Below are positions 1-26,720 of a DNA stretch of 64,000 bases, piece by piece. The stretch's first letter is position 1. The number at the start of each line of letters is the position of its first letter. A model generated the notes under the pieces. The model was not told the origin of the DNA, ran no database searches, and saw only the letters and a list, made by a program, of their open reading frames with translations. A program made the translations under genes and the position numbers. Origin of the DNA: a virus; IMG/VR virus record IMGVR_UViG_3300022602_003048, positions 1-64,000 of that record, one strand, 5' to 3'.

Positions 1-228
1 GATTTAAACACATTTATAGAAGATTACAATAATAGATACAGTACAGACGTATCGGAAAGATTTACCCACATTTTATACGAACTTTCTAAACCTCATAATC
101 CGAATGCAGCTAAGAAATTTTTACAAGTTAGCCATGATATAGATAAAATTAGAGAAGAATCTATATTTGATGTTATACCGGAATTGGAAATAATTAGGGA
201 TATGTACCCAGAAAGTCTTAGAGATTAG
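1..228 (+). CDS. 3' end of a CDS running in from the window edge; probably a Twitch/SPASM radical SAM protein C-terminus
   Basis: Frame 1 is open to TAG at 226-228; ends DKIREESIFDVIPEL, resembling the C-terminus LDKTRNQRHISHFVPEF of the rSAM at 6616-7884. Confidence 0.55.
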   Translation, partial: DLNTFIEDYNNRYSTDVSERFTHILYELSKPHNPNAAKKFLQVSHDIDKIREESIFDVIPELEIIRDMYPESLRD

Positions 229-230
229 GA

Positions 231-1169
231 ATGACAGATATCATTAAGATAGATCAGCTTAGTCCTTCGTTGTATCTAACATGGGTAGTAAATAATATTT
301 GCACAAATTCGTGTTCGTATTGTCCGCCTGATTTGCACAACGGAAAGAATACTCATTACGAATGGGAAGATGCTGAGCGATTTTCTAAATATCTGATTAG
401 TAAATATTCAAAAATACAACTAGCATTATCGGGAGGTGAACCTACAATAAGTCCTTGGTTTAAAGATCTTGTAAAGCTTTACAGTGACTCAGGAAACCCA
501 ACCGGAATGACTACTAATGGTGCTAGAACAATTAGATATTATGATGAGATATCTAAGTATATGAGTTACATAGTTATGAGTTACCATCCTAGTTTTGAAG
601 ATCCAGAATTATTAGATAAAGCTTTAGCTTGTAGCAAGAATACATTGACCACTATATCTGTTATGTTCGATTCTAGATATTTTAATAAAAGTTTGGAATT
701 TTATGAAAAAGCTAAAATCTATAGTAGTATATCATTACAACCAATAATGATACAGTATTGGCCTGGAGTAGAAACTACTGCTGGAAGAGATTATACAGAA
801 GATCAATTATCTATATTAAAAAACCTAACAACAATCGAAGCCTCAGAAATTACGATGCCTAAAAATTTAGGAGAAATGGGAGGAATAGCAACTTATGACA
901 ACGGAACTATTTCTAGATTTGATGCTCAAATTTTAATTAATAATAAAAAAACTAATTTCTTTGGTTGGGAATGTGATATAGGCATGGAAAGTTTATTTGT
1001 TAGATATGACGGTACTATAAAAACAGCAAATTGCAATAGTGCTAAGATTATAGGAAATCTAAATAAATTTGAAGAGATAGAATGGCCAGATAAAACATTT
1101 ATTTGTCCTCAAACTTTCTGTCATTGTACTACTGATGTATATGTTAGTAAGAGACTAAAAAATGTATGA
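231..1169 (+). CDS. Radical SAM protein with C-terminal SPASM/Twitch-like Cys cluster
   Basis: CTNSCSYC (CxxxCxxC), GGEPT, TTNG; C-terminal C..G..DG....C and CxxxxCxC; paralogue of 5724-6623. Confidence 0.92.
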   Translation: MTDIIKIDQLSPSLYLTWVVNNICTNSCSYCPPDLHNGKNTHYEWEDAERFSKYLISKYSKIQLALSGGEPTISPWFKDLVKLYSDSGNPTGMTTNGARTIRYYDEISKYMSYIVMSYHPSFEDPELLDKALACSKNTLTTISVMFDSRYFNKSLEFYEKAKIYSSISLQPIMIQYWPGVETTAGRDYTEDQLSILKNLTTIEASEITMPKNLGEMGGIATYDNGTISRFDAQILINNKKTNFFGWECDIGMESLFVRYDGTIKTANCNSAKIIGNLNKFEEIEWPDKTFICPQTFCHCTTDVYVSKRLKNV

Positions 1170-2478
1170 TATATTTTTCTTGGTAGATCATCGGTTATCT
1201 GATTCTATAAAAAAGCGATTTCCTTTAGCAAAAAAAGCATCTTCGATCGTTGATGCTAAGAATAAATCTATGACTAAGTTTTTTTGGGTCGTAGATCGTG
1301 ATTATAGTCTCTTAGAAGATTTTAAATTTGATTATAAAATACCTGATTGGGATCAGATGTATGTACATGTTTGGAAGACGGTATCTAATGATCATTCTGG
1401 AGTATATTTGATTCCAAAAAAGTATGAAATAACTAATAGAGAAGCTGAATATAGTTTTTTTATTAAAAGAAAAGAAATTGATGTAATCGCAAGTAAGAAA
1501 CAACCTTATGATATTTTTTATATATCAAAACCTAATGATTATATCAACGCACAAACAGAATCTACAACTAAAATGTTTTATGCCATTCTCGATGATGTTG
1601 TAGTTGATCCAAAATTTGATTTTACATATAATGTTCCTAACTGGGATCAAGAATATGTAAATGTATTTTCACAATCGGGAGAAGATACGCACGGTGGTGT
1701 CTATCTTATACCTAAGAATTATAATATTACGAAGAGAGAGGCCGAATATAATTTTTTTATAAACAAAAAAGATATTGACATTATAGCTTCTAAGCCAGGA
1801 TTTGAGATAGTCTTTATCAGCTACGACGAATCAAATGCTGAAGAAAATTGGAATAATTTAAGATACAGGTTTCCATATGCCAAACGTATAGATAAAGTTG
1901 ACGGCATACATAATGCCCATAAAGAAGCTGCCAAGATAACTGATACTAGTATGATATGGGTAGTAGACGGAGATGCGATTGTATTAGATGATTTTAATTT
2001 TGATATAGCTATACCTAAATGGGATAGAAACATTACACATGTTTGTAAAAGTAAAAATCCAATAAATGATTTAGAATATGGATATGGCGGTGTCAAACTA
2101 TTACCTAGAAAATTATTATTAGAGATGAGAACTGACACGGTTGATATGACCACTTCTATATCGAGAGATTTTAAAACTTTAGATATTGTTAGTAATATAA
2201 CAGCATTCAATACAGATACTTTTAATACTTGGAAAAGCGCATTCCGTGAATGTGTTAAATTATCTAGCAAAGTGATAGACGGACAAATAGATGCTGAAAC
2301 ACAAGATAGATTAGAAATCTGGTGTACTAAAGGACAGAATCAAGACTACGGTCATTGGGCATTGCTCGGAGCACAAGCAGGCAGGAAATATGGTTCACAA
2401 AATAAAGATAATAAAGAAATGTTGTTGAAGATAAATGATTGGAAATGGTTACAGGATGAATTCAACAGAAATAACTAA
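1162..2478 (+). CDS. Glycosyltransferase-like protein (GT-A-like) with three tandem homologous segments
   Basis: WVVDGD (DxD) in the third repeat; FISYDE..AEENW and GIHNAHKEAA motifs; internal repeats. Confidence 0.6.
   Translation: MYDIFFLVDHRLSDSIKKRFPLAKKASSIVDAKNKSMTKFFWVVDRDYSLLEDFKFDYKIPDWDQMYVHVWKTVSNDHSGVYLIPKKYEITNREAEYSFFIKRKEIDVIASKKQPYDIFYISKPNDYINAQTESTTKMFYAILDDVVVDPKFDFTYNVPNWDQEYVNVFSQSGEDTHGGVYLIPKNYNITKREAEYNFFINKKDIDIIASKPGFEIVFISYDESNAEENWNNLRYRFPYAKRIDKVDGIHNAHKEAAKITDTSMIWVVDGDAIVLDDFNFDIAIPKWDRNITHVCKSKNPINDLEYGYGGVKLLPRKLLLEMRTDTVDMTTSISRDFKTLDIVSNITAFNTDTFNTWKSAFRECVKLSSKVIDGQIDAETQDRLEIWCTKGQNQDYGHWALLGAQAGRKYGSQNKDNKEMLLKINDWKWLQDEFNRNN
1270..2112 (+). repeat. Three degenerate ~75-aa protein repeats (F.FD/TY..P.WD..Y.HV...GVYLIPK)
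   Basis: FKFDYKIPDWDQMYVHVW..GVYLIPKKYEITNREAEY vs FDFTYNVPNWDQEYVNVF..GVYLIPKNYNITKREAEY vs FNFDIAIPKWDRNITHV..GVKLLPRK; boundaries approximate. Confidence 0.85.
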
Positions 2479-3085
2479 CATTAGACTTGATATAGATCAT
2501 ATTCTTTTCTGGATGGATGCTATCAGAAATAGTGCAGATAAAGATCGATCGTTAGAAAGTTTTTGGAAAGGCCAGATCAAGAGCAAAATATGGTTGATCG
2601 ATAACCTTATAAATTATATATCTCCTATAAACAATAATATTGTTATCCATGGGGGGTGGAATGGTGTATTAGCTAGCTTATTATTCCAGTCATCGATTAA
2701 ATTAGAAAAAATAATTTCAATAGATATAAATCCGGCTTGTAAAGAAATTGCCGAAACAATGAATAAGATAGAAGAGATAACTGGAAGGTTTCGAGCAGTT
2801 ACATCTGATATGGCAGAATACACCTATGATTTTAATCCCGATATAGTGATAAACACTAGTTGTGAACATATCACTCAGGAAACATATGAAATTTGGTTAT
2901 CAAAGGTTCCATTTAATTCTATAATAGTCCTACAAAGCAATGATTATTTTGATCTAGAGGAGCACATACGCTGTGCTAAAAATTTAGAAGAATTTATAGA
3001 TCAGAGTAAAATCAAAATTATTAGATCAGATATTTTACAACTGCCTAAATATAGTAGGTTTATGTTGATAGGATATAAGCAATGA
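2456..3085 (+). CDS. Class I SAM-dependent methyltransferase-like protein
   Basis: IHGGWNG motif I, acidic SIDIN, DIVINTSCEH; paralogue at 42555-43121; start chosen at ATG 2456. Confidence 0.75.
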   Translation: MNSTEITNIRLDIDHILFWMDAIRNSADKDRSLESFWKGQIKSKIWLIDNLINYISPINNNIVIHGGWNGVLASLLFQSSIKLEKIISIDINPACKEIAETMNKIEEITGRFRAVTSDMAEYTYDFNPDIVINTSCEHITQETYEIWLSKVPFNSIIVLQSNDYFDLEEHIRCAKNLEEFIDQSKIKIIRSDILQLPKYSRFMLIGYKQ

Positions 3086-4617
3086 ATCATTCTATAATAT
3101 TTTCACCTAGAGGTAAAAGGTGGCAACGAGGTATGGGTGCTCACCGTATTGCTTCATTCTTACGATTGCAAGATTGGGACGTTGAAGTTATTGATTATGT
3201 AATATTCTGGGAATTAGAACAATTAAAAGAACTGGTCAAAAGTAGGGTAAATTCATCTACTGTATTTTTTGGATTTAGTACATTTTTTAATGTATGGTCT
3301 GGAACTATGAATGAGTTTACTAAGTGGTTAAAAGAGGAATATCCTCACATACCAATAGTTATAGGCGGCCAGAGTGTATTATTGACTGATGCAGAAAATA
3401 TAGATTATTGGGTAGACAGTTACGGTGAGAATGCGATAATAGCACTAACTAGAAAACTGATAGGAACTGATACTAGTCCTATAACATATGATGAAAATTA
3501 TAGTGATAAGAAAGTTATACGAGGACTAACGGCATATCCGTCAGCACCGCTATCGTCTTATTATATAGAATTTGAAAAACGAGATTTTATGCGTTCTACA
3601 GAAATGCCTACAATAGAAATTAGCAGAGGTTGTAAGTTTGCATGTGAATATTGTAATTTTCCTATATTAGGCGTAAAGGGTGATCAATCTAGCAGTCAAG
3701 ACAGTTTCCGTAGGCAGATAGAACATGCTTACGATAATTGGGGTATTAAAAATTGGATGATAGCAGACGAAACTTTTAACGATCGCACTGATAAGATTAG
3801 GAAATTTGCTGATGTTGTAGAAAAATTATCTTTCAAACCTTGGTTCTCGGCCTTTATTAGGGGAGATCTATTAGTAAGTCAGCGTAATCAATGGGATGAA
3901 TTGATACGCATGCAAGTACTCGGCCATTCAATGGGCATAGAAACTTTTAATCAGGAAAGCGGGAAGATCATCGGTAAAGGTATGGATCCTGACAGGATAA
4001 AAGAGGGATTGATTGAGTTTGAAAAATATACAGATATTCATGCACCTAGGAGATACAGGGCAAATATAAATCTTATTTGTGGCCTACCAAAAGAAACCGA
4101 ATCGTCATGGAATGATACAATTGATTGGTTGAATAAACATTGGATAAGACAAAGTGCTAGTGCTTGGATATTAGAGATAAGTGATTTTAATAATGATCTA
4201 ACTAATATGAGCAAATTTACTAGGAATTTAAAAAAACACGGCCTCAGGTCTATTGGAGCACAAGAAGCAAATGGTCAGGTACTAACTAGAGATGAAAACG
4301 GAAATCTACAATTTAAATCTACAGTGCAGTATGCTGGAGGTGTTGGCACTACCAGAGAAAAAATATGCATATGGGCCCACGATAATATGGATTGGTATCA
4401 AGCAGGAAATCTAGTTAGGAAATTTTATAGCAATGATGGATTTATCGGACGTTCTGGAAATAATCCTATTTTAACTGATAGACTTTTTGATTTCTATAAT
4501 ACTACTGAATATGAAGATATATGGGATAAAGACATGCGTGATGTAAACGACACTGCGCCTGTTTTTTTAAATATAATAAGAGATTATATTGATAATAAAA
4601 TAAATTGGAGATCTTGA
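3082..4617 (+). CDS. Cobalamin-binding (class B) radical SAM enzyme
   Basis: N-terminal GAHRIASFLR..DVEVID / IVIGG B12-binding-like domain; SRGCKFACEYC; DETF; GIETF; ICGLP.ET. Confidence 0.88.
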   Translation: MNHSIIFSPRGKRWQRGMGAHRIASFLRLQDWDVEVIDYVIFWELEQLKELVKSRVNSSTVFFGFSTFFNVWSGTMNEFTKWLKEEYPHIPIVIGGQSVLLTDAENIDYWVDSYGENAIIALTRKLIGTDTSPITYDENYSDKKVIRGLTAYPSAPLSSYYIEFEKRDFMRSTEMPTIEISRGCKFACEYCNFPILGVKGDQSSSQDSFRRQIEHAYDNWGIKNWMIADETFNDRTDKIRKFADVVEKLSFKPWFSAFIRGDLLVSQRNQWDELIRMQVLGHSMGIETFNQESGKIIGKGMDPDRIKEGLIEFEKYTDIHAPRRYRANINLICGLPKETESSWNDTIDWLNKHWIRQSASAWILEISDFNNDLTNMSKFTRNLKKHGLRSIGAQEANGQVLTRDENGNLQFKSTVQYAGGVGTTREKICIWAHDNMDWYQAGNLVRKFYSNDGFIGRSGNNPILTDRLFDFYNTTEYEDIWDKDMRDVNDTAPVFLNIIRDYIDNKINWRS

Positions 4618-5733
4618 TTGTTTAGATTTGATGAGCTAAGGACAGTAGAATTAGAGATAACAAATCGATGCCAAGCTTCTTGTCCTATGTGTCCTAGAAA
4701 CATTCATAGTGGAATCGATAATCCATTTTTAAAAATCAATGATTGGACATATGAGGATTTCGTTACTATATTCGACGAAGAAGTTGTAAAACAAGTAAAG
4801 ACATTTCTATTTTGTGGTAGTTTTGGAGAACCTGTATTAAACAATGATATATTAAAGATGTGCAAATATATAAAAATTAAAAATCCAGAAGCACATGTTA
4901 TGATACACACAAATGGAAGTCTAAGAAAACCAGATTGGTGGGCAGAATTAGTAAGTGTCTTACCTAATAGTCATCAGGTATTTTTTGCTATTGACGGCAT
5001 TGATTCAAAAACACACGCTCTCCATCGAGTAGGTACCGATCTAAATAAAGTAATGGAAAACGCTAAAAGCTTTATTTCTGCAGGAGGGTATGCTGTATGG
5101 AACTTCATAAGATTTAAACATAATCAAGAACAAGTGATTGCTGCTAGATCTCTCTCACAGCAGCTAGGATTTAGTGAGTTTTCCATTAAAGATACTAGGA
5201 GATTTACTGGGCCGAATTTTAAAGTTTTAGATAGTAGTGGAGCTGTTACACATTATCTAGAATCTAATACAGACAATCTTATACATTATGTTGACAAAGG
5301 TGTAATAGAAAGTACGTATAATACCTGGTCAAAGAGTAATAATATCTATTGTTATGCAAAGGATGACAATTCTAGTATTTACATAGATGCACATCTAACT
5401 ATGTTACCTTGTTGCATATTATCATCTTTTTTATATACTAGTTACGATGAATCTATATTGCGCAAATATGGGTTATATAACGAGAAAACATCAGTTAATT
5501 CTCTCGGAATAAAATTAAAGAAACAAGTATATGAAATAATAAGTGAGATGGGCGGAATTGATAATCTAAATGCTCGAGATGTAGGAATTAAAGAAATAAT
5601 GAACTCTCTATCATGGCAAACTATATGGCAGGAAAAATGGAATAACCACGGATCTTTAGTCTGTATGTTGATGTGTAGTAAAGCAAGTCCTTTTATCTCT
5701 ATTGAAGGTCAGTTTTCAAATAATCAAGAATAA
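4618..5733 (+). CDS. Radical SAM protein with Twitch-like C-terminus
   Basis: CQASCPMC, GEP, HTNGS, FAIDG; LPCC and CxxxC at C-terminus; TTG start. Confidence 0.9.
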   Translation: MFRFDELRTVELEITNRCQASCPMCPRNIHSGIDNPFLKINDWTYEDFVTIFDEEVVKQVKTFLFCGSFGEPVLNNDILKMCKYIKIKNPEAHVMIHTNGSLRKPDWWAELVSVLPNSHQVFFAIDGIDSKTHALHRVGTDLNKVMENAKSFISAGGYAVWNFIRFKHNQEQVIAARSLSQQLGFSEFSIKDTRRFTGPNFKVLDSSGAVTHYLESNTDNLIHYVDKGVIESTYNTWSKSNNIYCYAKDDNSSIYIDAHLTMLPCCILSSFLYTSYDESILRKYGLYNEKTSVNSLGIKLKKQVYEIISEMGGIDNLNARDVGIKEIMNSLSWQTIWQEKWNNHGSLVCMLMCSKASPFISIEGQFSNNQE

Positions 5734-6623
5734 CTTGTTTTAGTTAAAGGTATATCTGCCGAACAAGTACACCAATTGCGTGTGCATACTATTGGATCCA
5801 CAGGTTTTTGGAAAGTACCATCATATATATTTCCTAAACTACCTCCTACTCTGCAAGTAGCGCGATGTACTTCGCCATCCCAGTTTATCATCAGGCTTTC
5901 CAATCCTGCATTACAGGTCCATCCTTTAAATTGATTCATATGCAATTTAATGATATCGTTAGCGTGCATTTCTTCAATGTCATCTATTGTGCAGTTTGGC
6001 CATATCGTAGCAGTTGAATTTTTGATCCATTCTAGATCATCGGGATGATATCGCATATCGTCAAATAAATCGTGGTTGCCTTCGGTCCAGCGTATCCTCC
6101 TCACAGCATAGGGTATCTTTAAAATTTCTAGATCTCGTTTTGCTGTCCTAACGTGATCCATGTGCTTATGGTGAGCCATTATGTGTACTAGCACCCTGTT
6201 AGTCCTCAGCATTTCAAATTCCATTATATTGTTTAGGCATCTTTCCCAGTCTTTTTCAAAATGGAGGCTAAAGACATATTGATCAACAATGTGCTGCTGT
6301 GATTCATACCATTTTGCGAGCCTAGTAGCATTGGTAGTCATGCTTACCCAAGTAATATTCTCAGCAGCGTGTATAGCAGCTAGAAGCTCTTCTATGCGAG
6401 GGTGTACGCTAGGTTCGCCTCCTGTTATGCTCAGACGCACAGGAGCTTCTAATTTGTTTAAAACCACCACTGTATTTTTAAGATTTTCTATGTCTGTGTG
6501 GGGACTATGATTATCGTGTATGTATTCTGGACAATAGGCACAATCTAGATTGCAGCGTTTTCCTAAATTCCATTCTATTTTTATCTTATCTTGATGAGGC
6601 CAGCGGCTGGTTATCTTATACAT
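5724..6623 (-). CDS. Radical SAM/SPASM protein
   Basis: CNLDCAYC, TGGEP, TTNA; CNAG..DG.V..C and CTRNWCTC. Confidence 0.92.
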   Translation of the reverse strand: MYKITSRWPHQDKIKIEWNLGKRCNLDCAYCPEYIHDNHSPHTDIENLKNTVVVLNKLEAPVRLSITGGEPSVHPRIEELLAAIHAAENITWVSMTTNATRLAKWYESQQHIVDQYVFSLHFEKDWERCLNNIMEFEMLRTNRVLVHIMAHHKHMDHVRTAKRDLEILKIPYAVRRIRWTEGNHDLFDDMRYHPDDLEWIKNSTATIWPNCTIDDIEEMHANDIIKLHMNQFKGWTCNAGLESLMINWDGEVHRATCRVGGSLGNIYDGTFQKPVDPIVCTRNWCTCSADIPLTKTSYS

Positions 6624-7884
6624 AGTCTAAAAATTCCGGTACAAAATGACTAATATGACGTTGATTTCTAGTCTTATCTAGTCGTTGATTAAACTCTAAA
6701 TACTTAGACCACAAATGGCTTTGATCTTTTCCGTTTAGATAATTTATATTATCTTGTATAAGTCCTAGCGTGATGTCTAATAATATTGGATGTTCTTTTA
6801 CTAACCGAAAATTTTTAATACGAGGTTTGATGTCTTCTAATTTTGCAATAGCTACTTTTTTTAAATCATTAGGTAGCACCTGTGCTGAAAGTAAGTTTGG
6901 ATGTTCGACTCTGTTTGAATAAAATACTATCCCTATATCGTCTAGAAAATATTCTATTATTTTATCTAAGGACATTATATTGCTTGCTTGTACACACACA
7001 GATCCAACTATTCTAGAAATATTAGGAATTTTTTGTATGATTTTTATGTTTTCAACTATAGTATTCCAATTAGAATTTCCTCTAATATGCTCATATACAT
7101 CGTCTAATCCATCAATGCTTACGTTGACTGCTACACTTTTAAATTTAGGCCAATAATCCCAAATATTTCTTCCTCCCTTTATACCTAATGTAGTTAGATT
7201 AGTAGCGTACTTGATTTCTATCTGATCTCCATATGGTGCAAGCTTATCTAATATACGATAATGTTGTGGATCCATAAGTGGTTCACCACCTGCAAATTCG
7301 GCTCTGCGGAAATAAGGTATAATCTTTTCAAAGCTTTCCCACCAGTTAGGATTGTCTTCAAACTTATCTAAATATGGTTTCTTTTTTAATCCTAATTTGT
7401 TTATAGCATCTACCATGTAGTTGCCTTCTTCTTTATAAAATTCTTCAACCTCGCTCCAGTCATCCCAGCTAGTACTATCAGTAGGTTGACACATGCGACA
7501 TTTTAGATTACAAAGGTTGTTTAACTTTATCTCCATAGTTGGTATCTCAAAAGGCATTGTGTAATCTTTTCTAAGCTGATTCAACGCATTAGGATATCTA
7601 TTGATCCTTGCTTCTGGGATTACTCCTTTAATATGCCGTTGTCTTAGTGATTCAACTCCTTGATCTTCTAATACAAAACATGGACTACATTCCTGGGGGC
7701 GTTCGTTATTTAGAACTTGATGTCGTATACGCCGCATGTTTTCATTGTTCCAGATCTCTTCTAGATTATTTTCTGTAATATTTCCAATAGGATGACTTCG
7801 GCAACAGACCTTAATAGACCCGTCTTCTCTAGTAGCTAGCCCAGTAAATGGATGCATACAAAATGTATTACTTTGATTGATCAA
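6616..7884 (-). CDS. Radical SAM protein with N-terminal Twitch domain
   Basis: N-terminal CMHPF..DG..VCC..CSPC; CNLKCRMC; GGEP; YATN; SIDG; likely TTG start at 7884. Confidence 0.9.
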   Translation of the reverse strand: MINQSNTFCMHPFTGLATREDGSIKVCCRSHPIGNITENNLEEIWNNENMRRIRHQVLNNERPQECSPCFVLEDQGVESLRQRHIKGVIPEARINRYPNALNQLRKDYTMPFEIPTMEIKLNNLCNLKCRMCQPTDSTSWDDWSEVEEFYKEEGNYMVDAINKLGLKKKPYLDKFEDNPNWWESFEKIIPYFRRAEFAGGEPLMDPQHYRILDKLAPYGDQIEIKYATNLTTLGIKGGRNIWDYWPKFKSVAVNVSIDGLDDVYEHIRGNSNWNTIVENIKIIQKIPNISRIVGSVCVQASNIMSLDKIIEYFLDDIGIVFYSNRVEHPNLLSAQVLPNDLKKVAIAKLEDIKPRIKNFRLVKEHPILLDITLGLIQDNINYLNGKDQSHLWSKYLEFNQRLDKTRNQRHISHFVPEFLDYV

Positions 7885-8605: not shown

Positions 8606-8649
8606 TGAAATATTTATAGGGTTCTTCAGTGCAAATAAATATTTCAATG
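8603..8649. promoter_or_regulatory. Back-to-back late promoters forming a perfect 15-bp inverted repeat (ATAAATATTTCAATG), each arm ending in a start codon
   Basis: 8603-8617 is the reverse complement of 8635-8649; 17-nt spacer. Confidence 0.8.
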
Positions 8650-13974: not shown

Positions 13975-14030
13975 TGATTACTTATAAAGAATTTAATTGC
14001 TGCAATTTTTCTTGGATAATTATGTGTATG
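13972..14030. promoter_or_regulatory. Divergent late-type promoters (ATAAGTA-N4-ATG on minus, ATAATTA-N5-ATG on plus)
   Basis: Boxes at 13979-13985 (-) and 14016-14022 (+). Confidence 0.6.
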
Positions 14031-14720: not shown

Positions 14721-15300
14721 AATAATAACTTGGACAGAAGATCTAGATTTGTCAAGATTTTATGCGATTGCAGCTGCAAAAGGGTTCGTAAACAATGCCA
14801 GCCAGAAGATGTTGATTGACAGTTTTAAGAACGAAAGAGAAAAGCAAGTTTGGATATTATACTATAATGATAATGCAGTAGGCAGTGTAGCAGCGCATTC
14901 ATTTGATGAGATGGGTGAAAATTGTTACAGGATAGCTGCTAGGACCTGTGTGTTTTCAGATCTGTTACCTAGGAGTGCAGATAGGATAGAAGATGCTGTC
15001 GGTATCGGTGGGCTTAGGACAGTAAAGGGCATTGTGACACACCAGAATGTAACATCGCAGTTTTTAATACCTGCGTGTTTGGAATGGGTACCAAAAGGCA
15101 GCAGTTTATACATAACTTCTAACGAAAACGAAAGCGGAACACAGCGTCTTGTACATCGCATATTTGGACCAGAAATGGAAAAAACCGGACAGATGCGACG
15201 AATAAAAGACATGCAATACAGGGGAACACAGCAAACAGTCTGGCAATTTTTCCCAGATGCATTTTGGGAAACCATAAACAAGTATCCAAGGTGGAAGTAA
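14713..15300 (+). CDS. GNAT-like acyltransferase
   Basis: Beta-strand pattern VWILYY..AVGSVAAH..YRIAARTCV and LYITSN; fold inferred only. Confidence 0.45.
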   Translation: MYKIITWTEDLDLSRFYAIAAAKGFVNNASQKMLIDSFKNEREKQVWILYYNDNAVGSVAAHSFDEMGENCYRIAARTCVFSDLLPRSADRIEDAVGIGGLRTVKGIVTHQNVTSQFLIPACLEWVPKGSSLYITSNENESGTQRLVHRIFGPEMEKTGQMRRIKDMQYRGTQQTVWQFFPDAFWETINKYPRWK

Positions 15301-15301
15301 T

Positions 15302-16708
15302 ATGGTTGATAAATTCATAAAAAAGAACCAAAAAGATATATTATTTTGCATAGTCGATAATCATGATTCCTGTCAAGATGGTTGGTCTAGAGAAATATCA
15401 AAGAATCTATCAGATTTTATGATTTTTAAGATCAATCAACATAGTTATGATATTTTTATAGGAAGCGACGAAGACGATCTTTTAAGATCAGCAGAGGATT
15501 ATAGATATGCAGTAGTAATCGCCTCAGGAACTTCTTTTAAAAGATCTGATCGAATATTCCAAGCAATTGAAGACAAATGCAAAGAAGACTTTTTCCTAGC
15601 TGGACATATATTAGATAGAGAAGAATACTATTATGAATTACATCATCAGTTTTATATAGTCAATTTATTAGAATACAGATCCTTAGGTTGTCCCGATATA
15701 GGTAAAGCAACAGAAGATAAACATACACAGTTCCTTCCAGAAAAAAGTGTTGATTTTTTATATGGTGAGAAAAAAATACCAACATATATAAAACCCGGAA
15801 ACATACTAAAAGAATATACAGGAAAATCACACGGGTGGAATATCTTAGCCGAGGCTCTGCACAATGGAAAAACATTGGTTGATCTAGGAGAAAAAATACG
15901 CAATAATAAGCGGTATTTTTATTATGAATATAATCATGTTTTTATAAAGCATATTCCAGAAGTATTTTATGATCAATTCTTTTGTAATAATTTTTTTGCA
16001 GGATGGAATTCTGATAGAGTGTTAGATAGGATAGATTTTGACGGACCTGTTGAGCAGTATATAACAGTCGGTATTGGGTTTAATTGGATTAAAAATCTTA
16101 TATTATTAGATTACAATTTAGATACTAGAGTAGTTTTTACTGATATAAATTTAAGTTGTTTAACTTTTATGGAAAAAATGATTAGGAATTGGGATGGTAA
16201 AGATTATACAGATTTTTATAAGAAAAATATTCCTAGATTACCAAATGGATTTAGAGAATTAAATGAAGATTATATTAGAGAAGTTGACAGTCAATGGAAT
16301 CAATTTGTTTCAAAATTTACTTCCTGGCATGAAATTTGGAATAAAATACGCCAGCTAAAATATGATTTTGAATTGATAGATTATACTTCAAATTATGATA
16401 TCGATTGGATAGAACCTAACAAAAAAACTTTAATAAATCTAAGTAATCTTTTTAATTATGTTTCTGGATCTCAATCTCAAAGTGTAAAATATCGTATAGC
16501 ATGTGAGAATAGATTAATAAGAAAATTGAAAGATAAAAATCCAGAAATTATATTGATGTTGACTACTAGGGCAGCTGATGGTTTTTCTTCTGATAGAGAC
16601 AGGATTTTGTTAGGTAAAGTATCGGAATATAATTTAACTGATATTAACTTTTTAAAATCGCCAGCATGGCATCTCAACGAATGGTATTCTAATAAAATAT
16701 TAGATTAG
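15302..16708 (+). CDS. Hypothetical two-domain protein (possible transferase N-terminus, Rossmann/SAM-binding-like C-terminus)
   Basis: 468-aa ORF; VGIGFN..VVFTDIN and LINLSNLF resemble Rossmann strands; function uncertain. Confidence 0.4.
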   Translation: MVDKFIKKNQKDILFCIVDNHDSCQDGWSREISKNLSDFMIFKINQHSYDIFIGSDEDDLLRSAEDYRYAVVIASGTSFKRSDRIFQAIEDKCKEDFFLAGHILDREEYYYELHHQFYIVNLLEYRSLGCPDIGKATEDKHTQFLPEKSVDFLYGEKKIPTYIKPGNILKEYTGKSHGWNILAEALHNGKTLVDLGEKIRNNKRYFYYEYNHVFIKHIPEVFYDQFFCNNFFAGWNSDRVLDRIDFDGPVEQYITVGIGFNWIKNLILLDYNLDTRVVFTDINLSCLTFMEKMIRNWDGKDYTDFYKKNIPRLPNGFRELNEDYIREVDSQWNQFVSKFTSWHEIWNKIRQLKYDFELIDYTSNYDIDWIEPNKKTLINLSNLFNYVSGSQSQSVKYRIACENRLIRKLKDKNPEIILMLTTRAADGFSSDRDRILLGKVSEYNLTDINFLKSPAWHLNEWYSNKILD

Positions 16709-16731
16709 ATAGAACATTAGTATATCGTTAT

Positions 16732-17376
16732 TTACGGTAAATCGTTTAGTGTAATGTATCTTCCGTGTATGTTAGCTTTTTTAGCAGCATCGTCTATAAT
16801 TTTCCTCCATTCTTCAGTAGAATCATATCTTGACACTATGATATGATATCTATCTTGGTTGCTTGTATTGACAAGACGATGATGATAACTTACATTTATA
16901 GTAAATGCATCACCGTCGTTCATTTCTAGATTAGGATGATCGTCTCCCCAATACCATGTACACCCTTCAGGATTATTTAATACCAGGTTTATGTTTTCTA
17001 ATAATCGTGTATTACCGTCACTGTGTAATCCGATGTAACCACCGGCTTCTAATAGCATAAATCTAACCCTACCATAATGTTTAGAGGGAAATCTATTTAA
17101 GAAAAAATCATGTGTAGTTGGACATTCGTATGCTGCTTTTGTCCAGTGCATATCTTTGTCCGCATCTTGTCCACTGCTGTATCCGTATGTTTTCCAACCG
17201 CCGGTTTTGTCTTCTCCTAACCCGTATAATGTTAGAGATTTCCAGCCCTTTGAATCGTCACTTCTGTGATATACAAATCTGTCTTTTAATTTATTTGCTT
17301 CTTTTAGCATTTCTTTATGAGGGAAATCGATATCTAATTTTAAAAATCGAGCTTCTGATTCAAAAAAATGTTTCAC
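16732..17376 (-). CDS. Aspartyl/asparaginyl beta-hydroxylase-like Fe(II)/2OG oxygenase
   Basis: GWKSLTLYG, GRVRFMLLEAGGYIGLHSD, HRLVN.S..DRYHII. Confidence 0.85.
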   Translation of the reverse strand: MKHFFESEARFLKLDIDFPHKEMLKEANKLKDRFVYHRSDDSKGWKSLTLYGLGEDKTGGWKTYGYSSGQDADKDMHWTKAAYECPTTHDFFLNRFPSKHYGRVRFMLLEAGGYIGLHSDGNTRLLENINLVLNNPEGCTWYWGDDHPNLEMNDGDAFTINVSYHHRLVNTSNQDRYHIIVSRYDSTEEWRKIIDDAAKKANIHGRYITLNDLP

Positions 17377-17900
17377 GACAGTATTTTACCTTCAGCGTGT
17401 AATTTTAAAATATCTCCCCAAGGTGCTAATAGGGAAATTTGTAAAGCATCTCTGGTGTTTAAATCATTTCTAACACCATGCAGTATTTGTGCATTGACTA
17501 TAGTAGGACATCTATAATAGTGTTCATATAATATTTTTGTTGGATTTTGATAAGTCCCCTCAGCATAATAGATAGGAGCAAATATTTCCGGCTGTATCGG
17601 AAATATAATAACAGCTTGTCTAACTGCATCTAGGTGTGCATCTAATCCACCATCGGGTGGCATTCTGAGTATCTCAGCTCTTACAATTTTTAAAGCAGGT
17701 GAAAAGATTGAAATTAGTTCTTTGATATAATCATTTTCCATGATTATATCGCCAGAAAGCACGTAATACATAGTATCTTTCTTATCAACAGATACTGATT
17801 TTGTATCCCAATTATCTGCCGAATCGCATATTTCTTTTAGTTTTAATTTATCATATTTGACTTCCGGCAATTCTATCACATATTCGTTTGCGACTACCAA
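17373..17900 (-). CDS. Fe(II)/2OG oxygenase
   Basis: AHLD (HxD), LHGVRN..RDALQIS; AGGAG RBS before TTG. Confidence 0.75.
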   Translation of the reverse strand: MVVANEYVIELPEVKYDKLKLKEICDSADNWDTKSVSVDKKDTMYYVLSGDIIMENDYIKELISIFSPALKIVRAEILRMPPDGGLDAHLDAVRQAVIIFPIQPEIFAPIYYAEGTYQNPTKILYEHYYRCPTIVNAQILHGVRNDLNTRDALQISLLAPWGDILKLHAEGKILS

Positions 17901-17918
17901 ATGTTGCTCCTTTTGAAA

Positions 17919-17949
17919 TATTTATCAGCTTGTTTTCCGTCAATAAATA
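17919..17949. promoter_or_regulatory. Divergent ATAAATA late-promoter boxes
   Basis: tatttat at 17919-17925 (-) and ATAAATA at 17943-17949 (+); both downstream genes have SD sequences. Confidence 0.65.
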
Positions 17950-17973
17950 TCTTTAGATAGCGAGGGAAAGCAC

Positions 17974-18807
17974 ATGCAATACCATTTACATGACAATGGA
18001 TGGACGGTTATTTTAGATAATTTTGATTTTAAAACAGCGACGCAAGAAGATATAAATCAAATAGCTAAGCTGATAGCAAATAATACTTGCGTAGTAGCTA
18101 AAAATCAATCACTAACAATAGATGATGAATTGCGTATTGCTAATATGTTTAAAAATCCACAGCCTTTTATAAGAGAACACGATCCAAATAATCATCATTT
18201 TTGGGTAGAAGGCACTGGGGGAACTATACAGAGAGTTACTGGCGAGCTAAACGAACATGGATTTCCGGGCATAGCAGGTTATGTTGACGAAATGTTATGG
18301 CATTGTAATGAACCACAGAAGGAGACTCGATCTCCCATCATATGGTTATACGGTGTAAAGGGCACAAAAGGATCTAGGACATCTTGGAATAATAATATAA
18401 TGTCTTATAATGATCTAAGTCAGGAAATGAAAGATAAATTATCTACATTGCAAATAATATGTATGACAGGACTTTCATTGAAGGATGAAAGAGATGGTAT
18501 TCCTGTTGATACATATACACCAAATATAGTACATACAAACAATGCAGGGAAGACAGGATTGTTTTTCCCATTTTTACAAATGAGTCATTTTAAGAGAATG
18601 TCTGTTGAAGAAAGCAGAAAAATAATGGATCCATTAGCTGAACATACTATACAAGAGAAATATTGTTATCATCATGATTGGGATGACGGCGATGTTGTTA
18701 TTGCAGAACAATGGTTAGGTATCCATAAGCGTTGGCCATTTGAAGGAATCGCTACTAGATTGTTACATAGAATAGCATTTGATTTTCCAGATCAGGATTA
18801 TGTATGA
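17974..18807 (+). CDS. TauD/TfdA-family dioxygenase
   Basis: WHCN, YHHDWDDGDVVI, IHKR, RLLHR. Confidence 0.85.
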   Translation: MQYHLHDNGWTVILDNFDFKTATQEDINQIAKLIANNTCVVAKNQSLTIDDELRIANMFKNPQPFIREHDPNNHHFWVEGTGGTIQRVTGELNEHGFPGIAGYVDEMLWHCNEPQKETRSPIIWLYGVKGTKGSRTSWNNNIMSYNDLSQEMKDKLSTLQIICMTGLSLKDERDGIPVDTYTPNIVHTNNAGKTGLFFPFLQMSHFKRMSVEESRKIMDPLAEHTIQEKYCYHHDWDDGDVVIAEQWLGIHKRWPFEGIATRLLHRIAFDFPDQDYV

Positions 18808-19517
18808 TAAAAAATATTTTAGAATCACCGATGATAACAGATCCATGGAAACATCAAATTATAGATAAATTTTTTGATGAGAGTGATTTTAAAAAAATAT
18901 GGGATGCTTCTAAAAAATTACAAGAAACATATAGAGATAAAACTATTACATCTAACGATTGTTTAACGTTGGCGGAGGTGTTAGATATAATTGGTGATGA
19001 CGTTTTTGATATTATACTAAAAAGTAATACAGAAATATTAGATCATATAACAGATATAACAAATCTATATCCTAATCATTATAAACATAATGAATATGTT
19101 TCTTTTCCAACATTTCATATATTACCTCCTAATACTGGTTACCAAAAAATACATGATGAATCTAGTGATAAGACAATAAGTATTGTAGTTTACCTCTATC
19201 CGGAAAACAGTACCGGGACTTTTTTATACAAATCAAAAGATCGAGATTCTCTAGTTAAAGAAATAAGTTGGAAACCAAATAGTGCTATGTTATTTTGTGG
19301 AGAAAGTGATATTACTTGGCATGATTTTTGCTCTAGAGAATATCCTAGAGTAACACTTAATTATTTTGTTCGTTCTATATCATCTAGAGATTTAAAAGAA
19401 AAAGATGACAGATATTATTGGGAATTTGGTAATGGAATGAACGCATATATACCAAAGAATGTACCATCGGAGAAATTAAATTTACTCAAAAGCGGTATAT
19501 TATTTAGAAATTTATAG
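18804..19517 (+). CDS. Fe(II)/2OG oxygenase (prolyl-hydroxylase-like)
   Basis: IHDE, VVYLYP..GT.LY, WKPN, TWH, RVTLN. Confidence 0.82.
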   Translation: MIKNILESPMITDPWKHQIIDKFFDESDFKKIWDASKKLQETYRDKTITSNDCLTLAEVLDIIGDDVFDIILKSNTEILDHITDITNLYPNHYKHNEYVSFPTFHILPPNTGYQKIHDESSDKTISIVVYLYPENSTGTFLYKSKDRDSLVKEISWKPNSAMLFCGESDITWHDFCSREYPRVTLNYFVRSISSRDLKEKDDRYYWEFGNGMNAYIPKNVPSEKLNLLKSGILFRNL

Positions 19518-20120
19518 TAATTTTTGCGTTAGATAGTTTATATTATTAGAGTTACTATCTTTTAAATAGAATATAAAACACATTGCTTTATTTTTTTCAT
19601 CATTATTTCGCAGAGAATGATATTTTTCGACATTAAATGCATAAACATCTCCAGGCGATACAAGAAAACTATCTAAAACTATAGTTTCTATAGACGAATC
19701 TAAAGATCCGAACTCTCTAATATTAAACAACTCGTCGTCTTTTAGTCTAAGATTTTCATCTTTTATGTCGTAAAATTCAACATATGACGGATCACTAGTT
19801 TCTCTTATTATACATATATTCCAACGAGCATTCTTAGAATGTATATGTCTATGTTTTTCAAAATTGCTAGCGTATGTTATTCCTATAAATGGTTCTAATC
19901 CTGCATCTAATAAAAGTTCTTCTAATTCTGGAAAAATATTACATATATTGCTCCATTTTAAATCTATTTTACGGTCTACATTTAGTTGTTCATCTAGTAA
20001 TAAAAATTGATGATCTGTTGGGTAATCTTTACATATTGCCCAATAACTTGGAATTATTGGTGATATAATAACATTTATGTAGTCTTTGATATTATTTGAG
20101 ATAGAAATTATTTTCTTAAT
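19512..20120 (-). CDS. Cupin/2OG-oxygenase-like protein lacking a canonical start (candidate ATT start); extends the 72-aa ORF call
   Basis: Frame open from 20144 to 19512; HRHIH...WNICI...AFNVEKYHSLRN; ATAAATA box at 20142-20148. Confidence 0.65.
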   Translation of the reverse strand: MKKIISISNNIKDYINVIISPIIPSYWAICKDYPTDHQFLLLDEQLNVDRKIDLKWSNICNIFPELEELLLDAGLEPFIGITYASNFEKHRHIHSKNARWNICIIRETSDPSYVEFYDIKDENLRLKDDELFNIREFGSLDSSIETIVLDSFLVSPGDVYAFNVEKYHSLRNNDEKNKAMCFIFYLKDSNSNNINYLTQKLL

Positions 20121-20237
20121 CTGATCGTTATCTTGGTTGAGTATTTATGTTTGACAACATTTTGTATTCCTGTGCGACGGTTAGCTTTTAAGATATTTTC
20201 TAAAAGTTATTTATTGACTGTAATAAATATTCCTGAC

Positions 20238-20828
20238 ATGGATTATAAGAGAATAATAGCAGCATCACTAAATCTCGATATTGATTATGCACAGATGTCT
20301 AAAGAATTAGTTAGATCTATGTCTAGTAATGCGTGTGTTCCTTTTTCCTATGACGGATATACGGCATATTCTTTATTCCTAAGAGAAAGTACAGAACCAA
20401 CTACTTATAGTTATAGGGGTGCCAAATCTGCCGATATAGCATCGTGGTCTTGGAATGAGTTATTAGATATTCCCTACACAATAAAGGCTATTGAAGAATT
20501 ACCATTTAATAAATTAGGTACAGTGAGGGTAGTTTATTTTCCAAATATTCCCTGTAAGATACACACTGATTGGGATGATCCAACTGATTATGAACATACA
20601 CTTGGATTGAGTTTAATACCACAAACAGCTGATACAGTCTGTAGAGTATATATTGATAAAGAAGATCGATGGGTAGAAATACCAGGTAATGCTATGTTAC
20701 TCAACGATTCTGTACCACATGCAGTTCCTGAAGCAAAAGGAATTAGAATTACGATGAGATTATTTGGCGAAATCGATTACGATTGGTTTAAAGATAAAAT
20801 ATCTCTCAAAGATTCTTATTTTTTTTAA
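20238..20828 (+). CDS. Fe(II)/2OG oxygenase (AspH-like)
   Basis: GTVRV, IHTD, PHAV, RITMR; ATAAATA-N8-ATG start. Confidence 0.78.
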   Translation: MDYKRIIAASLNLDIDYAQMSKELVRSMSSNACVPFSYDGYTAYSLFLRESTEPTTYSYRGAKSADIASWSWNELLDIPYTIKAIEELPFNKLGTVRVVYFPNIPCKIHTDWDDPTDYEHTLGLSLIPQTADTVCRVYIDKEDRWVEIPGNAMLLNDSVPHAVPEAKGIRITMRLFGEIDYDWFKDKISLKDSYFF

Positions 20829-22294
20829 TTTTGTCGGCAAAGTATCCTGATAGCTTCAGGATCAAATTTAATTCCGGCAAAGAAATTAGATCTCGGCGAT
20901 ATTATTTTTTTTGATATATTATATACATCGCTTGCTAACATTTTTTGTATATTATGATTGATATAATCTAAATCTTTGTTTTCATTTAACCTTATATAGA
21001 TACTATCTTGTTCACTGTCTATTATAATATCAAAATCTATATCTTTTTTTAAATTTATTGTCTTTTCTATAACTTCATTTAATAAATCTATATAGATAGT
21101 CTTATTTTTTATTCTATAGACATTATCTCTTCCTAAGAAATAATAATTTCCATCTATTATTTTAAACTTGTCTCCGGTCTTTATTCTAGACCCATCCGGC
21201 ATTTCGATAATGATATAATTTTCATTATCTATGTGTACTTTATAAAAGTTATCTAAAGTTTTTCCCATAAATGAAGGATTATAACTCTTATAATTATCTT
21301 TAGTTATTTCTGGTAAAAAAACAAATCCTTTTATCTCATTTGCTCCAAAGATCGATACTATTTTATAACCAAAATTCCCCACTAGATTGTTTATTTCTTC
21401 TTGTTTAATTTTTGATAAAGCATAGATAATTAAATCGTCGTGTTGCTTATCTTCGATCTTTAAAAAATTGTTCAAAATTTCTAATTGATCAGAAAACATC
21501 AAACATCTGTTTATTTTTTCTTTTTGGAATAATTCTATCCATTTACAGATCATGGGACCTTCTGCATCCATGAATTTACTTGAGTCATATTGCATGAATT
21601 TAAAAGGAGCATGATAATGATGCGCACAATATTTCATGACAGGTAAGAAATATATTGTACATACGCTTCCATGATGTAATCCTTTAGAATGGAAGCATCT
21701 ATCTTCAGATTTTAATTGATAAACTTTTTTTTCTCTTTCTATTGTATCATAAAACCAACTGTGTGTGTTTTCTATTATTTTAGGAGTACCCGTTGTTCCT
21801 GAACTTGTTGCTAATAATATAATATCATCTTCCTTAGCCCATGTAGGCGTAGGATTTCCAGAATAATTGTATTCATATGCATCTTTTATATTTAAGATTT
21901 TGTCTGGATAAAACTTCTCAAATAACGGAACGCTACCATCTTGTATAATATAATCAATCTCTCCATAGATAGATAGCTTTTTAATAGTTATATCTGATTG
22001 AGGATAATCGGAAACAACAAATGTTAGGCCTAATTCAGCACATGCATAAAACCATGTTATATAATCTGGCCAGAACCAAATACAAAATATTACTTTTTGA
22101 CCGGGCCTGCATTTTTTTACATTAATTAGATATTCTTTAGCATGATCGATTGATTTTATGATATCATCATAGTGTGTTACTGTTTTCTTGATATTTCCTA
22201 TATTATCGTCTATGACAGATAATTTTTTATCCGTCATAGACAATGCTGTCACTATTAGATCTTTATGTAAACAATTCCGATCGATTATTTTCAT
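20825..22294 (-). CDS. AMP-binding (ANL superfamily) adenylate-forming enzyme
   Basis: TSSGTTGTPK P-loop, FGANE, TGD, GR; ATAAATA-N4-ATG. Confidence 0.85.
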   Translation of the reverse strand: MKIIDRNCLHKDLIVTALSMTDKKLSVIDDNIGNIKKTVTHYDDIIKSIDHAKEYLINVKKCRPGQKVIFCIWFWPDYITWFYACAELGLTFVVSDYPQSDITIKKLSIYGEIDYIIQDGSVPLFEKFYPDKILNIKDAYEYNYSGNPTPTWAKEDDIILLATSSGTTGTPKIIENTHSWFYDTIEREKKVYQLKSEDRCFHSKGLHHGSVCTIYFLPVMKYCAHHYHAPFKFMQYDSSKFMDAEGPMICKWIELFQKEKINRCLMFSDQLEILNNFLKIEDKQHDDLIIYALSKIKQEEINNLVGNFGYKIVSIFGANEIKGFVFLPEITKDNYKSYNPSFMGKTLDNFYKVHIDNENYIIIEMPDGSRIKTGDKFKIIDGNYYFLGRDNVYRIKNKTIYIDLLNEVIEKTINLKKDIDFDIIIDSEQDSIYIRLNENKDLDYINHNIQKMLASDVYNISKKIISPRSNFFAGIKFDPEAIRILCRQN

Positions 22295-26695: not shown

Positions 26696-26720
26696 TTCTA
26701 TCTCCTTTGTTTATACACTT

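Follow-up and report, generated by a model that had tools for sequence, protein, structure and literature searches.

A conserved island of radical SAM and oxygenase genes, with promoter boxes also found at baseplate and fibre genes, in an uncultured lake jumbo phage

What can a phage make of a block of genes that nearly all seem to encode modifying enzymes, and on which molecule would these enzymes act? The question is raised by the left part of a DNA stretch of 64,000 nucleotides (nt), hereafter the window, which corresponds to positions 1-64000 of a 93.5-kb linear IMG/VR record (IMGVR_UViG_3300022602_003048, contig G000 in our numbering) from an uncultured lake jumbo phage. Completeness of the record is 24% according to CheckV, which implies a genome of about 390 kb. 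Positions 1-22294 form an island of genes for radical S-adenosylmethionine (SAM) enzymes, Fe(II)/2-oxoglutarate (2OG) oxygenases and cupin-like proteins, kinase-fold proteins and various candidate transferases and ATP-dependent enzymes. The order of the core genes is kept in related phages, and their transcription units carry a promoter box that also precedes baseplate and fibre genes. Our tentative preference goes to a late cytoplasmic tailoring system that would decorate the receptor-binding proteins of the virion.

Extent of the island and promoter boxes

Within 1-22294, 26 open reading frames (ORFs) are tightly packed on both strands, their ends abutting or overlapping, as in the preliminary description of this DNA, which had counted at least 26 contiguous genes, mostly for modifying enzymes. 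The left end of the island is missing, window base 1 being contig base 1. The contig end truncates the first ORF, 1-228 (+), which matches NF033640 at model positions 333-395 (E 1.6e-5) and is the C-terminal stub of an eighth, N-twitch-type radical SAM gene; the island hence continues beyond the contig. The other side is flanked by ThyX, two genes away, and replication genes. The right boundary itself is a gene for a tail-fibre protein with an Mtd_N domain at 22327-23094 (-; PF18454, 2.5e-10), and the claim that the island ends next to a fibre gene was therefore correct. GC content is 0.29-0.41 in the island versus 0.40-0.50 in the remaining window.

No coding space is left for a precursor of a ribosomally synthesised and post-translationally modified peptide (RiPP), and no short conserved ORF was detected within 1-22294. 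The sole apparent gap, at 19517-20133, is occupied by a start-less cupin-like frame, and the earlier remark that scaffold synthase and precursor are absent agrees with this lack of intergenic space. Membrane segments were found in none of the 26 products. Pfam and PHROG family scans recognised no transporter, protease or immunity gene among the island products, and with NCBIfam added no carrier protein, condensation enzyme or sugar-nucleotide starter enzyme was seen. TET/JBP, DNA glycosyltransferase, DpdA and DNA-binding families likewise gave no Pfam, PHROG or NCBIfam match in the island, in which ten ORFs have no family at all. PHROGs returned nothing for 9 of the 10 unknown island ORFs.

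The island is made of transcription units that alternate in direction. Four starts were corrected before promoter analysis (8605, 8647, 14028 and 20238). The box ATAA(A/G/T)TA was then found within 40 nt upstream of all 8 unit heads with a defined start, as well as of the fibre gene, and at none of the 15 internal starts; the empirical chance of a box per head is about 0.017. Six heads have the box 4-8 nt ahead of the ATG and no Shine-Dalgarno site. At 17900, 17974 and the fibre gene it is placed 18-24 nt upstream, followed by a Shine-Dalgarno site. The spacing is 18 nt at 17900, 8 nt at 20238, 4 nt for the gene at 20825-22294 and 23 nt for the fibre gene. Divergent units have paired boxes. 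The pair TATAAATA/AATAAATA at 8603-8649 is 5 nt from the ATG on each side (8605 and 8647). The pair TATAAGTA and GATAATTA at 13972-14030 stands between a radical SAM unit and a kinase-fold unit, with the TATAAGTA box 4 nt before the ATG of 12910-13974, and an ATAAATA pair at 17919-17949 has a Shine-Dalgarno site after each box. At the junction of the radical SAM and kinase-fold units the box is exact in 9 of 13 orthologous loci, and loci L012 and L015-L017 show a one-base near-variant, TATAAATT.

Boxes followed by an ATG after 4-8 nt occur 15 times in the window, compared to 7.06 +/- 2.98 in shuffled sequences, none of 100 shuffles reaching 15. In the whole 93.5-kb contig, 13 of 16 such boxes open an ORF of at least 50 codons. 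The box is also present 22-30 nt upstream of a 1208-aa baseplate-wedge/virion protein (G000 70125-73751) and of a tail-fibre/connector protein (G000 73793-74542); the clamp loader, PolB and the other replication genes showed no such box. The T4 late promoter consists of a TATAAATA-like -10 element, with no -35 element, upstream of late genes, and depends on a gp55-type late sigma factor. A box of this type was found here at unit heads and at baseplate and fibre genes, and judging from the sequence the island has its promoter class in common with baseplate and fibre genes. By analogy with T4 this class would be late, and the starts with a short spacer would give leaderless mRNAs, from a promoter class that extends over the genome. 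The claim of expression during morphogenesis stands as far as the box is common to baseplate and fibre genes, the timing being deduced from the motif.

The same box, 5 nt before the ATG, also heads the DnaJ gene at 61954-62823 (-) and occurs at 46602-46859, 47803-48273 and 44362-44583, small genes of a cluster spanning 42.5-52.5 kb. The promoter class is thus not confined to recognisable structural genes.

Sigma-70-like sites are distributed differently. None reaches 11 of 12 positions in the island, where their number (94) is not in excess of shuffles (101 +/- 11). The replication block has five that match 11-12 of 12 positions; each is on the coding strand and, when coordinates are compared with the ORF list, just upstream of a gene start of the replication/deazaguanine block. 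They are on the minus strand of window 24000-43000 and end at 36899, 39456, 34067, 32341 and 26721. This suggests that the block is under early or middle transcription by the host RNA polymerase. Both parts of the preliminary description, ATAA(A/G/T)TA boxes at the island units and sigma-70 promoters in the replication block, were recovered.

Conservation in related phages

A scan of IMG/VR with the protein of 12910-13974 gave 13 other loci. The genes from about 5724 to 18807 keep their order there, with 40-78% identity. The recurring core comprises the N-twitch radical SAM, a cupin of the aspartyl/asparaginyl hydroxylase (AspH) type, both kinase-fold paralogues, two small cupins, the protein of 11057-11872, one or two Zn-ribbon radical SAM proteins, a GNAT-like protein, a protein combining a glycosyltransferase A-like (GT-A-like) and a methyltransferase domain, a PF05118 protein and TauD. 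The B12 radical SAM gene and 5724-6623 are usually present beside this core. What varies between loci are cassettes. TauD occurs in up to three paralogues, and the other variable genes encode additional B12 enzymes, an SGNH hydrolase, a clear methyltransferase of class I, another type of QueC-like PP-loop enzyme and the ANL enzyme. The PP-loop type encoded at 7868-8605 is absent from most related islands. A pathway-sized block of enzymes, as had been described, is therefore conserved in 13 syntenic loci and, as seen below, in distant mini-islands; homologues are not scattered and the core order is kept.

Five related contigs have 10-15 radical SAM genes each. On one contig of 81.5 kb (G001), the island occupies 44320-72011, includes 12 radical SAM genes and ends at a homologous fibre gene. 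The same contig has three further radical SAM genes in a mini-cluster of their own, about 16 kb from the main island (G001:C1:23485-28905): one encodes a B12-type protein of 672 aa, one a protein of 369 aa and one an N-twitch type. The Mtd_N fibre homologue adjoins the island in L009/L010, L011, L014, L015-L017 and G001.

More distant versions (25-45% identity) were found on four short low-GC contigs binned in a metagenome-assembled genome (MAG) of Verrucomicrobiales. One of the four, of 11 kb, was the single contig returned when 185,579 species were scanned with two peptide patterns of the GT-A-like/methyltransferase family, a scan too narrow to be proof of restriction to viruses. One of the MAG contigs carries a phage ligase-like gene. 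Because of this gene, of the low GC content and of the mini-islands, we read these contigs as phage DNA, probably mis-binned, and not as a cellular context. On another of them, the 18.3-kb contig of L030 (G006:C227:1-18331; GC 0.38), 11 CxxxCxxC genes lie on one strand, and seven of them are over the cut-off of the N_Twi_rSAM model.

In metagenomes, the Zn-ribbon radical SAM protein forms 508 clusters at 90% identity and the kinase-fold protein 2639; the Atlas clusters are 87-100% viral. Core homologues are also present on contigs of 120-300 kb, among them ones of 296.7, 152.6 and 122.9 kb. When five core proteins were compared with 50,697 GenBank phage records, four remained without a match, while the N-twitch radical SAM was found in three distant jumbo phages of this set. 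Ralstonia phage RsoM2USA has the N-twitch gene only and no other part of the island. A DNA search with the island and with the 30-52 kb region detected nothing in GenBank phages.

Enzymes encoded by the island

A gene was called radical SAM if it exceeded the Pfam cut-off for PF04055 (29.5 bits) and encoded a CxxxCxxC motif. Seven complete island genes exceed this cut-off, each with the motif; of the eight radical SAM genes announced before, the last is thus the C-terminal stub 1-228 only. The best defined is the core gene 6616-7923 (-), an N-terminal-twitch radical SAM that matches NF033640 (1.5e-95; 320.6 bits versus a cut-off of 170) over model positions 1-396 of 398. Its SPASM/twitch residues 22-82 precede the radical SAM domain (135-300), and orthologues with 65-73% identity were found in 13 of 13 loci. 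It is a member of NF033640 (N_Twi_rSAM, twitch domain-containing radical SAM), of which related contigs have 2-3 members each over the cut-off. This family covers a single gene and not the whole system, and no reaction assigned to it was found in the literature.

Two Zn-ribbon radical SAM genes, paralogues with 54% identity, are adjacent at 11850-12917 (-) and 12910-13974 (-), the latter being the head of the unit. The N-terminus of the former is HMPTM/Tes/TrsS-like (PF23545, 4.8e-14; PF04055, 1e-13), its NCBIfam matches to TrsS and Tes being below cut-off; the corresponding values for the latter are 8.6e-16 and 3.9e-15. Gene 3082-4617 (+) encodes a radical SAM protein, putatively of the B12-binding-domain (class B) type. 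PF04055 is clear (1.6e-13, 51.6 bits) and PF02310 below cut-off (1.2e-4, 22.4 bits versus 32.1); the nearest NCBIfam models, rSAM_ladder_B12 and PhpK, reach 56 bits at best for cut-offs of 360-600. Orthologues were found in 10 loci (51-54% identity). The STM4011-like radical SAM gene 5724-6623 (-; PF04055, 2.5e-13) also has orthologues in 10 loci, with 52-80% identity. A small paralogue of it (24% identity), STM4011/viperin/MoaA-like, is found at 231-1169 (+; PF04055, 4.2e-11; CxxxCxxC at residue 24), and 4618-5733 (+; PF04055, 9.6e-11) is SPASM/twitch-related. NCBIfam matches of these last two genes were all below cut-off.

Four oxygenases have profile support and about six more were proposed on motifs or leads, so that the ten or so Fe/2OG oxygenases of the preliminary description are a fair upper estimate, the firm count being four. 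Gene 16732-17376 (-) belongs to the Asp/Asn beta-hydroxylase family, characterised by an H-x-D/E...H iron triad (PF05118, Asp_Arg_Hydrox, 5e-14, 52.9 bits versus a cut-off of 22.6), and 17974-18807 (+) to the TauD/TfdA family of Fe(II)/2OG dioxygenases (PF02668, 6e-21, 76 bits versus 27), with 1-3 paralogues in related loci. Two cupins were linked to 16732-17376 by iterative hidden Markov models (HMMs) and are of the same Asp/Asn-hydroxylase type. These are 8647-9318 (+; start corrected to ATG 8647; PF05118, 0.0034; link first seen at E 6.3e-13; orthologues with 48-52% identity in 13 loci) and 20238-20828 (+; start corrected to ATG 20238; first E 5.5e-5, 1.4e-51 at convergence).

The most conserved core protein is encoded at 11057-11872 (-), with 69-78% identity across loci (alignment A1). 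It has no Pfam or PDB sequence match; an Atlas language-model feature score of 0.95 to a PF05118 cluster, to be taken as a lead, makes it a probable Asp/Asn-hydroxylase-like cupin. Genes 9958-10545 (+) and 10533-11057 (-) encode paralogous cupin-like proteins with an H-x-D...H motif (hhalign 94.2%; H, D and H invariant in alignment A7), the second being a core gene with 53-58% orthologues in 13 loci. Their cupin matches in the PDB are sub-significant (0.03-0.1). The unit head 17373-17900 (-), with no family, is a candidate cupin by its H-x-D...H motif, and 18804-19517 (+), which is not conserved in the 13 loci, is a candidate oxygenase, likewise by motif. The frame at 19512-20144 (-), 210 codons from stop to stop, has a Cupin_2 match at E 0.27 only and its first ATG, GTG or TTG at codon 139, in the last third; an ATAAATA box at 20148 lies over its first codons and no orthologue is present in the 13 related loci. 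It is possibly a decaying paralogue or pseudogene, or a gene with an unusual start codon. Among the cupin candidates, the link of 9958 with 10533 was the sole one given by hhalign, and iterative HMMs joined 11057, 17373, 18804 and 19512 to no other family. PDB sequence-profile searches with four unannotated island families gave nothing significant.

The kinase folds announced earlier were confirmed by structure prediction. Genes 9315-10001 (+) and 14028-14720 (+; start corrected to ATG 14028) encode two paralogues (hhalign 99.5% between the families) of about 230 aa. For the second family the AlphaFold model has a pLDDT of 90.5, Foldseek gives probability 1.0 to hundreds of kinases, and VIA, searched against 48,161 chains, yields Z 10.4-12.0 over about 185 residues, with every one of the top 50 a kinase, pseudokinase or RIO kinase. 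Both branches have an invariant Pro where the HRD Asp is read, and a DFG-like Asp is found in the 9315 branch and lost, with the HRD Asp, in the 14028 branch. These positions were assigned by reading alignment A5 and not by structural superposition. Because of these two replacements, the pair appears from its sequence to consist of atypical enzymes or scaffolds, not of ordinary kinases. No longer, fused form of the kinase-fold protein was found.

The glycosyltransferase of the preliminary description was visible by structure only, in the core gene 15302-16708 (+). Its product (468 aa, pLDDT 93.5) is predicted to combine a GT-A-like Rossmann domain (residues 8-221) and a class I SAM methyltransferase domain (221-442). 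The former resembles the LH3 accessory domain, PBCV-1 A64R and STIV A197 (VIA Z 9.4-10.0), and the latter NNMT, PNMT and EgtD (Z 9-10.8). The family, for which Pfam has no model, comprises 492 representative clusters at 50% identity. Across 67 diverse members there is almost no variation in a motif I glycine and in the acidic residue that follows strand 2. Among ten long members, 7 are fused to Asp_Arg_Hydrox and 1 to TPR, which links this protein functionally to the cupins. By predicted fold it is close to PBCV-1 A064R, a capsid-glycan glycosyltransferase with a methyltransferase domain (Z 9.7), and to the accessory domain of human LH3/PLOD3 (Z 10.0); relatives of 15302-16708 add a dioxygenase domain as LH3 does. 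The domain order of A064R is GT-GT-MTase. Neither A064R nor LH3 has detectable sequence similarity to 15302-16708, the Z scores are moderate, and 15302-16708 has no invariant DxD.

Other assignments were mixed. The ANL ligase was confirmed at 20825-22294 (-; PF00501, 5.4e-11), and its match to the amino-acid adenylation domain TIGR01733 (1.6e-11) is below cut-off. For the PP-loop ATPase at 7868-8605 (-; start corrected to ATG 8605) the SGGxDS motif is present and the profile match is weak (0.0046); a QueC-like PHROG match (1.1e-5) concerns the C-terminal Cys cluster only. No NCBIfam QueC match and no full-length QueC match was obtained, and we did not retain this gene as a QueC. Two unrelated PP-loop ATPase types with a QueC-like C-terminal zinc site were observed among the islands (7868-8605; L012:6648-7352; G002:C1:33038-33208). 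The PP-loop proteins of the G001 and G002 islands match QueC model positions 153-208 only, and PF06508 has no match on the 93.5-kb contig despite its FolE/QueD/QueE/DpdA-type cluster. The methyltransferase and GNAT calls were retained as weak candidates only: a class I SAM methyltransferase at 2435-3085 (+; Pfam methyltransferase E 0.04-0.19; orthologues of 51% in G001 and 35% in L032) and a GNAT/FeeM-like acyltransferase at 14713-15300 (+; PF21926 FeeM, E 0.015; no PDB match), the latter a core gene with 46-64% orthologues in 13 loci. Lastly, 1162-2478 (+) encodes a 438-aa protein outside the conserved core: neither Pfam nor PHROGs assign it to a family over cut-off, and the 13 loci lack an orthologue. 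By eye it has three tandem modules of about 130 aa, the third with a VDGD motif.

Possible targets and neighbouring genes

Starting from what was observed in gene content, folds, co-occurrence, box pattern, solubility and fibre boundary, we infer timing, each of the reactions and the target as follows. The island would be a virus-specific cytoplasmic tailoring system, under the T4-late-like promoter class of baseplate and fibre genes, and act on a phage-made macromolecule, probably tail-fibre or baseplate proteins that bind the receptor. Cupins of the Asp/Asn-hydroxylase type would hydroxylate side chains, as would the TauD enzyme. Radical SAM chemistry would be applied to unactivated C-H bonds, the B12-type enzyme performing C-methylation, and the N-twitch and Zn-ribbon enzymes other reactions. 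The GT-A-like/methyltransferase protein may transfer a sugar or a methyl group, the PP-loop and ANL enzymes would bring ATP-dependent activation, and the kinase-fold proteins may be atypical transferases or scaffolds that hold the substrate. Relatives that gain or lose paralogue cassettes would differ in their decoration, as one would expect of a host-recognition region.

Decoration of virion proteins is favoured because the enzymes are soluble, the promoter class is shared, a fibre gene forms the boundary and the cassettes vary. It is also favoured because AspH hydroxylases and kinase folds have mostly protein substrates, PF05118 enzymes being known to hydroxylate Asp and Asn in proteins, and because the GT-A-like/methyltransferase fold parallels a viral capsid-glycan enzyme and has AspH and TPR fusions. 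Finally, the island has no precursor, exporter, sugar-nucleotide starter or DNA-acting families. A more specific form of this proposal is that in uncultured aquatic jumbo phages RiPP-like machinery, comprising up to a dozen or more radical SAMs together with hydroxylase arrays, puts C-H functionalisations and a methylated sugar on the phage's own receptor-binding virion proteins; we regard it as possible, if doubtful. The functionalisations would then include methylation, cross-links or epimerisation, and hydroxylation, and fast cassette turnover would diversify or harden the fibres.

Several observations weigh against decoration of the virion. No substrate was identified, and the fibre alignment has no obvious repeated target motif. 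Most radical SAM subfamily assignments are far under curated cut-offs. The adjacency to the fibre gene may be plain synteny, and co-occurrence with collagen-like proteins was uninformative on fragmentary contigs. The presence of the box at DnaJ and unknown genes weakens the label "late". PF05118 also covers the lipid hydroxylases LpxO and OlsC. The island scans contained no PqqD/RiPP recognition element (RRE) family, and no leader-like sequence was detected. Lastly, no invariant DxD exists in the GT-A-like domain among the 67 diverse members, and for this reason sugar transfer by the modelled domain is uncertain.

Proteusin (polytheonamide) pathways combine radical SAM enzymes, of the B12 type and others, with Fe/2OG hydroxylases and methyltransferases. 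The island resembles them in its enzyme classes, its B12 type being putative, and is without leader precursor, RRE and protease; its membership among RiPP proteusin clusters is not supported. No characterised system of this composition was found in the literature, an amoC-phage preprint and a paper on the HS:19 capsule having no bearing on it. The earlier statement that no similar phage pathway is known should nevertheless be tempered, since descriptive precedents exist (PMC7029224, PMC2938197). The nearest is the host recognition cluster of pelagimyophages and cyanomyophages, itself functionally uncharacterised: a variable island of 34-45 kb with tail fibres and many glycosyltransferases (Zaragoza-Solas et al. 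2020, PMC7029224). Some of these clusters in pelagimyophages hold radical SAM cassettes, Aspartyl/asparaginyl beta-hydroxylase is a core pelagimyophage protein, and the cluster was read as altering the host surface, an experimentally unproven reading (PMC7029224). Both are large, strain-variable islands tied to tail-fibre genes in aquatic myophages, and a variable enzyme island adjoining tail fibres is what we found here, with a fibre boundary in several loci and cassette differences. The published cluster is rich in glycosyltransferase and LPS (lipopolysaccharide) genes and lies between VrlC and the neck protein gp14 in T4-like phages of 132-164 kb, whereas the window phage is by its PolB a jumbo phage related to Atu_ph07 and Rak2 and its island is dominated by radical SAMs and cupins. 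The island thus differs from described clusters in lineage, in the dominance of radical SAMs, and in kinase-fold and GT-A-like/methyltransferase core families without a Pfam model.

The second precedent is Synechococcus phage Syn9, which has a tandem array of ten dioxygenases, with one TPR fusion (Iyer et al. 2010, PMC2938197). The same authors predicted that beta-hydroxylase operons with tail-collar and collagen-like proteins modify those proteins or peptides (PMC2938197). Syn9 and the window phage both encode an array of many unrelated Fe/2OG dioxygenases. The Syn9 array has halogenases and no radical SAM, while the island has radical SAMs, kinase folds and the GT-A-like/methyltransferase protein, and no halogenase.

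Other targets were weighed against these data. An unusual sugar or short glycan could be built in the cytoplasm by radical SAM and oxygenase chemistry on a nucleotide-sugar, then attached to a virion or host surface polymer and methylated by the GT-A-like/methyltransferase protein. B12 and other radical SAM enzymes tailor sugars, the architecture of 15302-16708 parallels that of PBCV-1 A64R, and accessory genes of relatives include the SGNH hydrolase and extra methyltransferases; glycosyltransferase-rich host recognition clusters provide a further parallel (PMC7029224). We nevertheless find this rather unlikely, for the window island has no nucleotidyltransferase, SDR (short-chain dehydrogenase/reductase) dehydratase/epimerase or sugar aminotransferase, the GT-A-like domain is without the invariant DxD, and many AspH-type cupins together with kinase folds are atypical for sugar pathways. 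That the product is a free small molecule or a heavily modified, proteusin-style peptide acting on host or competitors is improbable. The island offers no place for a precursor gene, nothing in it was recognised as an RRE, leader protease, transporter or immunity gene, and the ANL enzyme is without a carrier protein or a partner for condensation. The enzyme classes do parallel polytheonamide-type pathways, however, and a precursor could be upstream since the left end of the island is missing; the Syn9 dioxygenase array was also read as secondary metabolism by Iyer et al. (PMC2938197).

Remodelling of host envelope lipid or LPS, by LpxO/OlsC-like hydroxylation and acyl activation, so as to block superinfection, meets a difficulty in the absence of membrane segments in all 26 products, whereas LpxO and O-antigen modifiers are membrane proteins. 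PF05118 includes LpxO and OlsC, and the ANL enzyme and the FeeM-like acyltransferase candidate would suit acyl chemistry; the best NCBIfam neighbours of several radical SAMs are lipid enzymes (the ladderane B12-rSAM, Tes and HpnJ/R), all below cut-off. Surface alteration has been proposed for host recognition clusters (PMC7029224). The island has no acyl carrier protein or desaturase and its promoter class is that of structural genes, and we consider lipid remodelling quite improbable. Hypermodification of nucleic acids, either of phage DNA bases, for instance to 7-deazaguanine derivatives, or of tRNA, is in our judgement very improbable. A QueC-like PP-loop ATPase is a frequent island component, the deazaguanine cluster of the genome has no recognisable QueC, small radical SAM cores resemble QueE, viperin and MoaA, and ThyX is two genes away. 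Yet the similarity of the PP-loop proteins to QueC is limited to its C-terminal Zn site (the last 55 model positions), without a match to a QueC equivalog, and the 7868 type is missing from most related islands. No TET/JBP, DNA glycosyltransferase, DpdA or DNA-binding domain was found in the island, ten ORFs of which have no family, and the promoters are of the type of structural genes, not of the replication block.

If the target is the virion, no post-translational decoration system of a phage particle richer in enzymes would be known, and the island would add a layer of host-range determination in abundant lake phages; with RiPP-like chemistry on virion proteins, it would represent a new class of post-translational modification of viral structural proteins. 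Whatever the target, these phages are a large viral reservoir of uncharacterised radical SAM, cupin, atypical kinase-fold and GT-A-like/methyltransferase families, which lack annotation and amount to hundreds to thousands of clusters in metagenomes. They also pose the question of how oxygen-sensitive enzymes work beside oxygen-dependent ones in a phage of oxic waters.

Outside the island the window has genes for PolB, a 5'-3' exonuclease, ThyX, ClpB and DnaJ, for a MoxR-type ATPase and its VWA/metallopeptidase partner, and for a collagen-repeat protein of 1640 aa (52788-57710). A second radical SAM location, outside the island, is the gene 31462-32316. Among cultured phages, PolB is nearest to that of Sinorhizobium phage Phosso (50.7%), Agrobacterium phage Atu_ph07 (46.5%) and Rak2-like phages (about 44%), all jumbo myoviruses with T4-type replication genes. 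Outside the window, an ORF of 2631 aa (G000:C1:74569-82464, minus strand) comes next after the baseplate and fibre genes.

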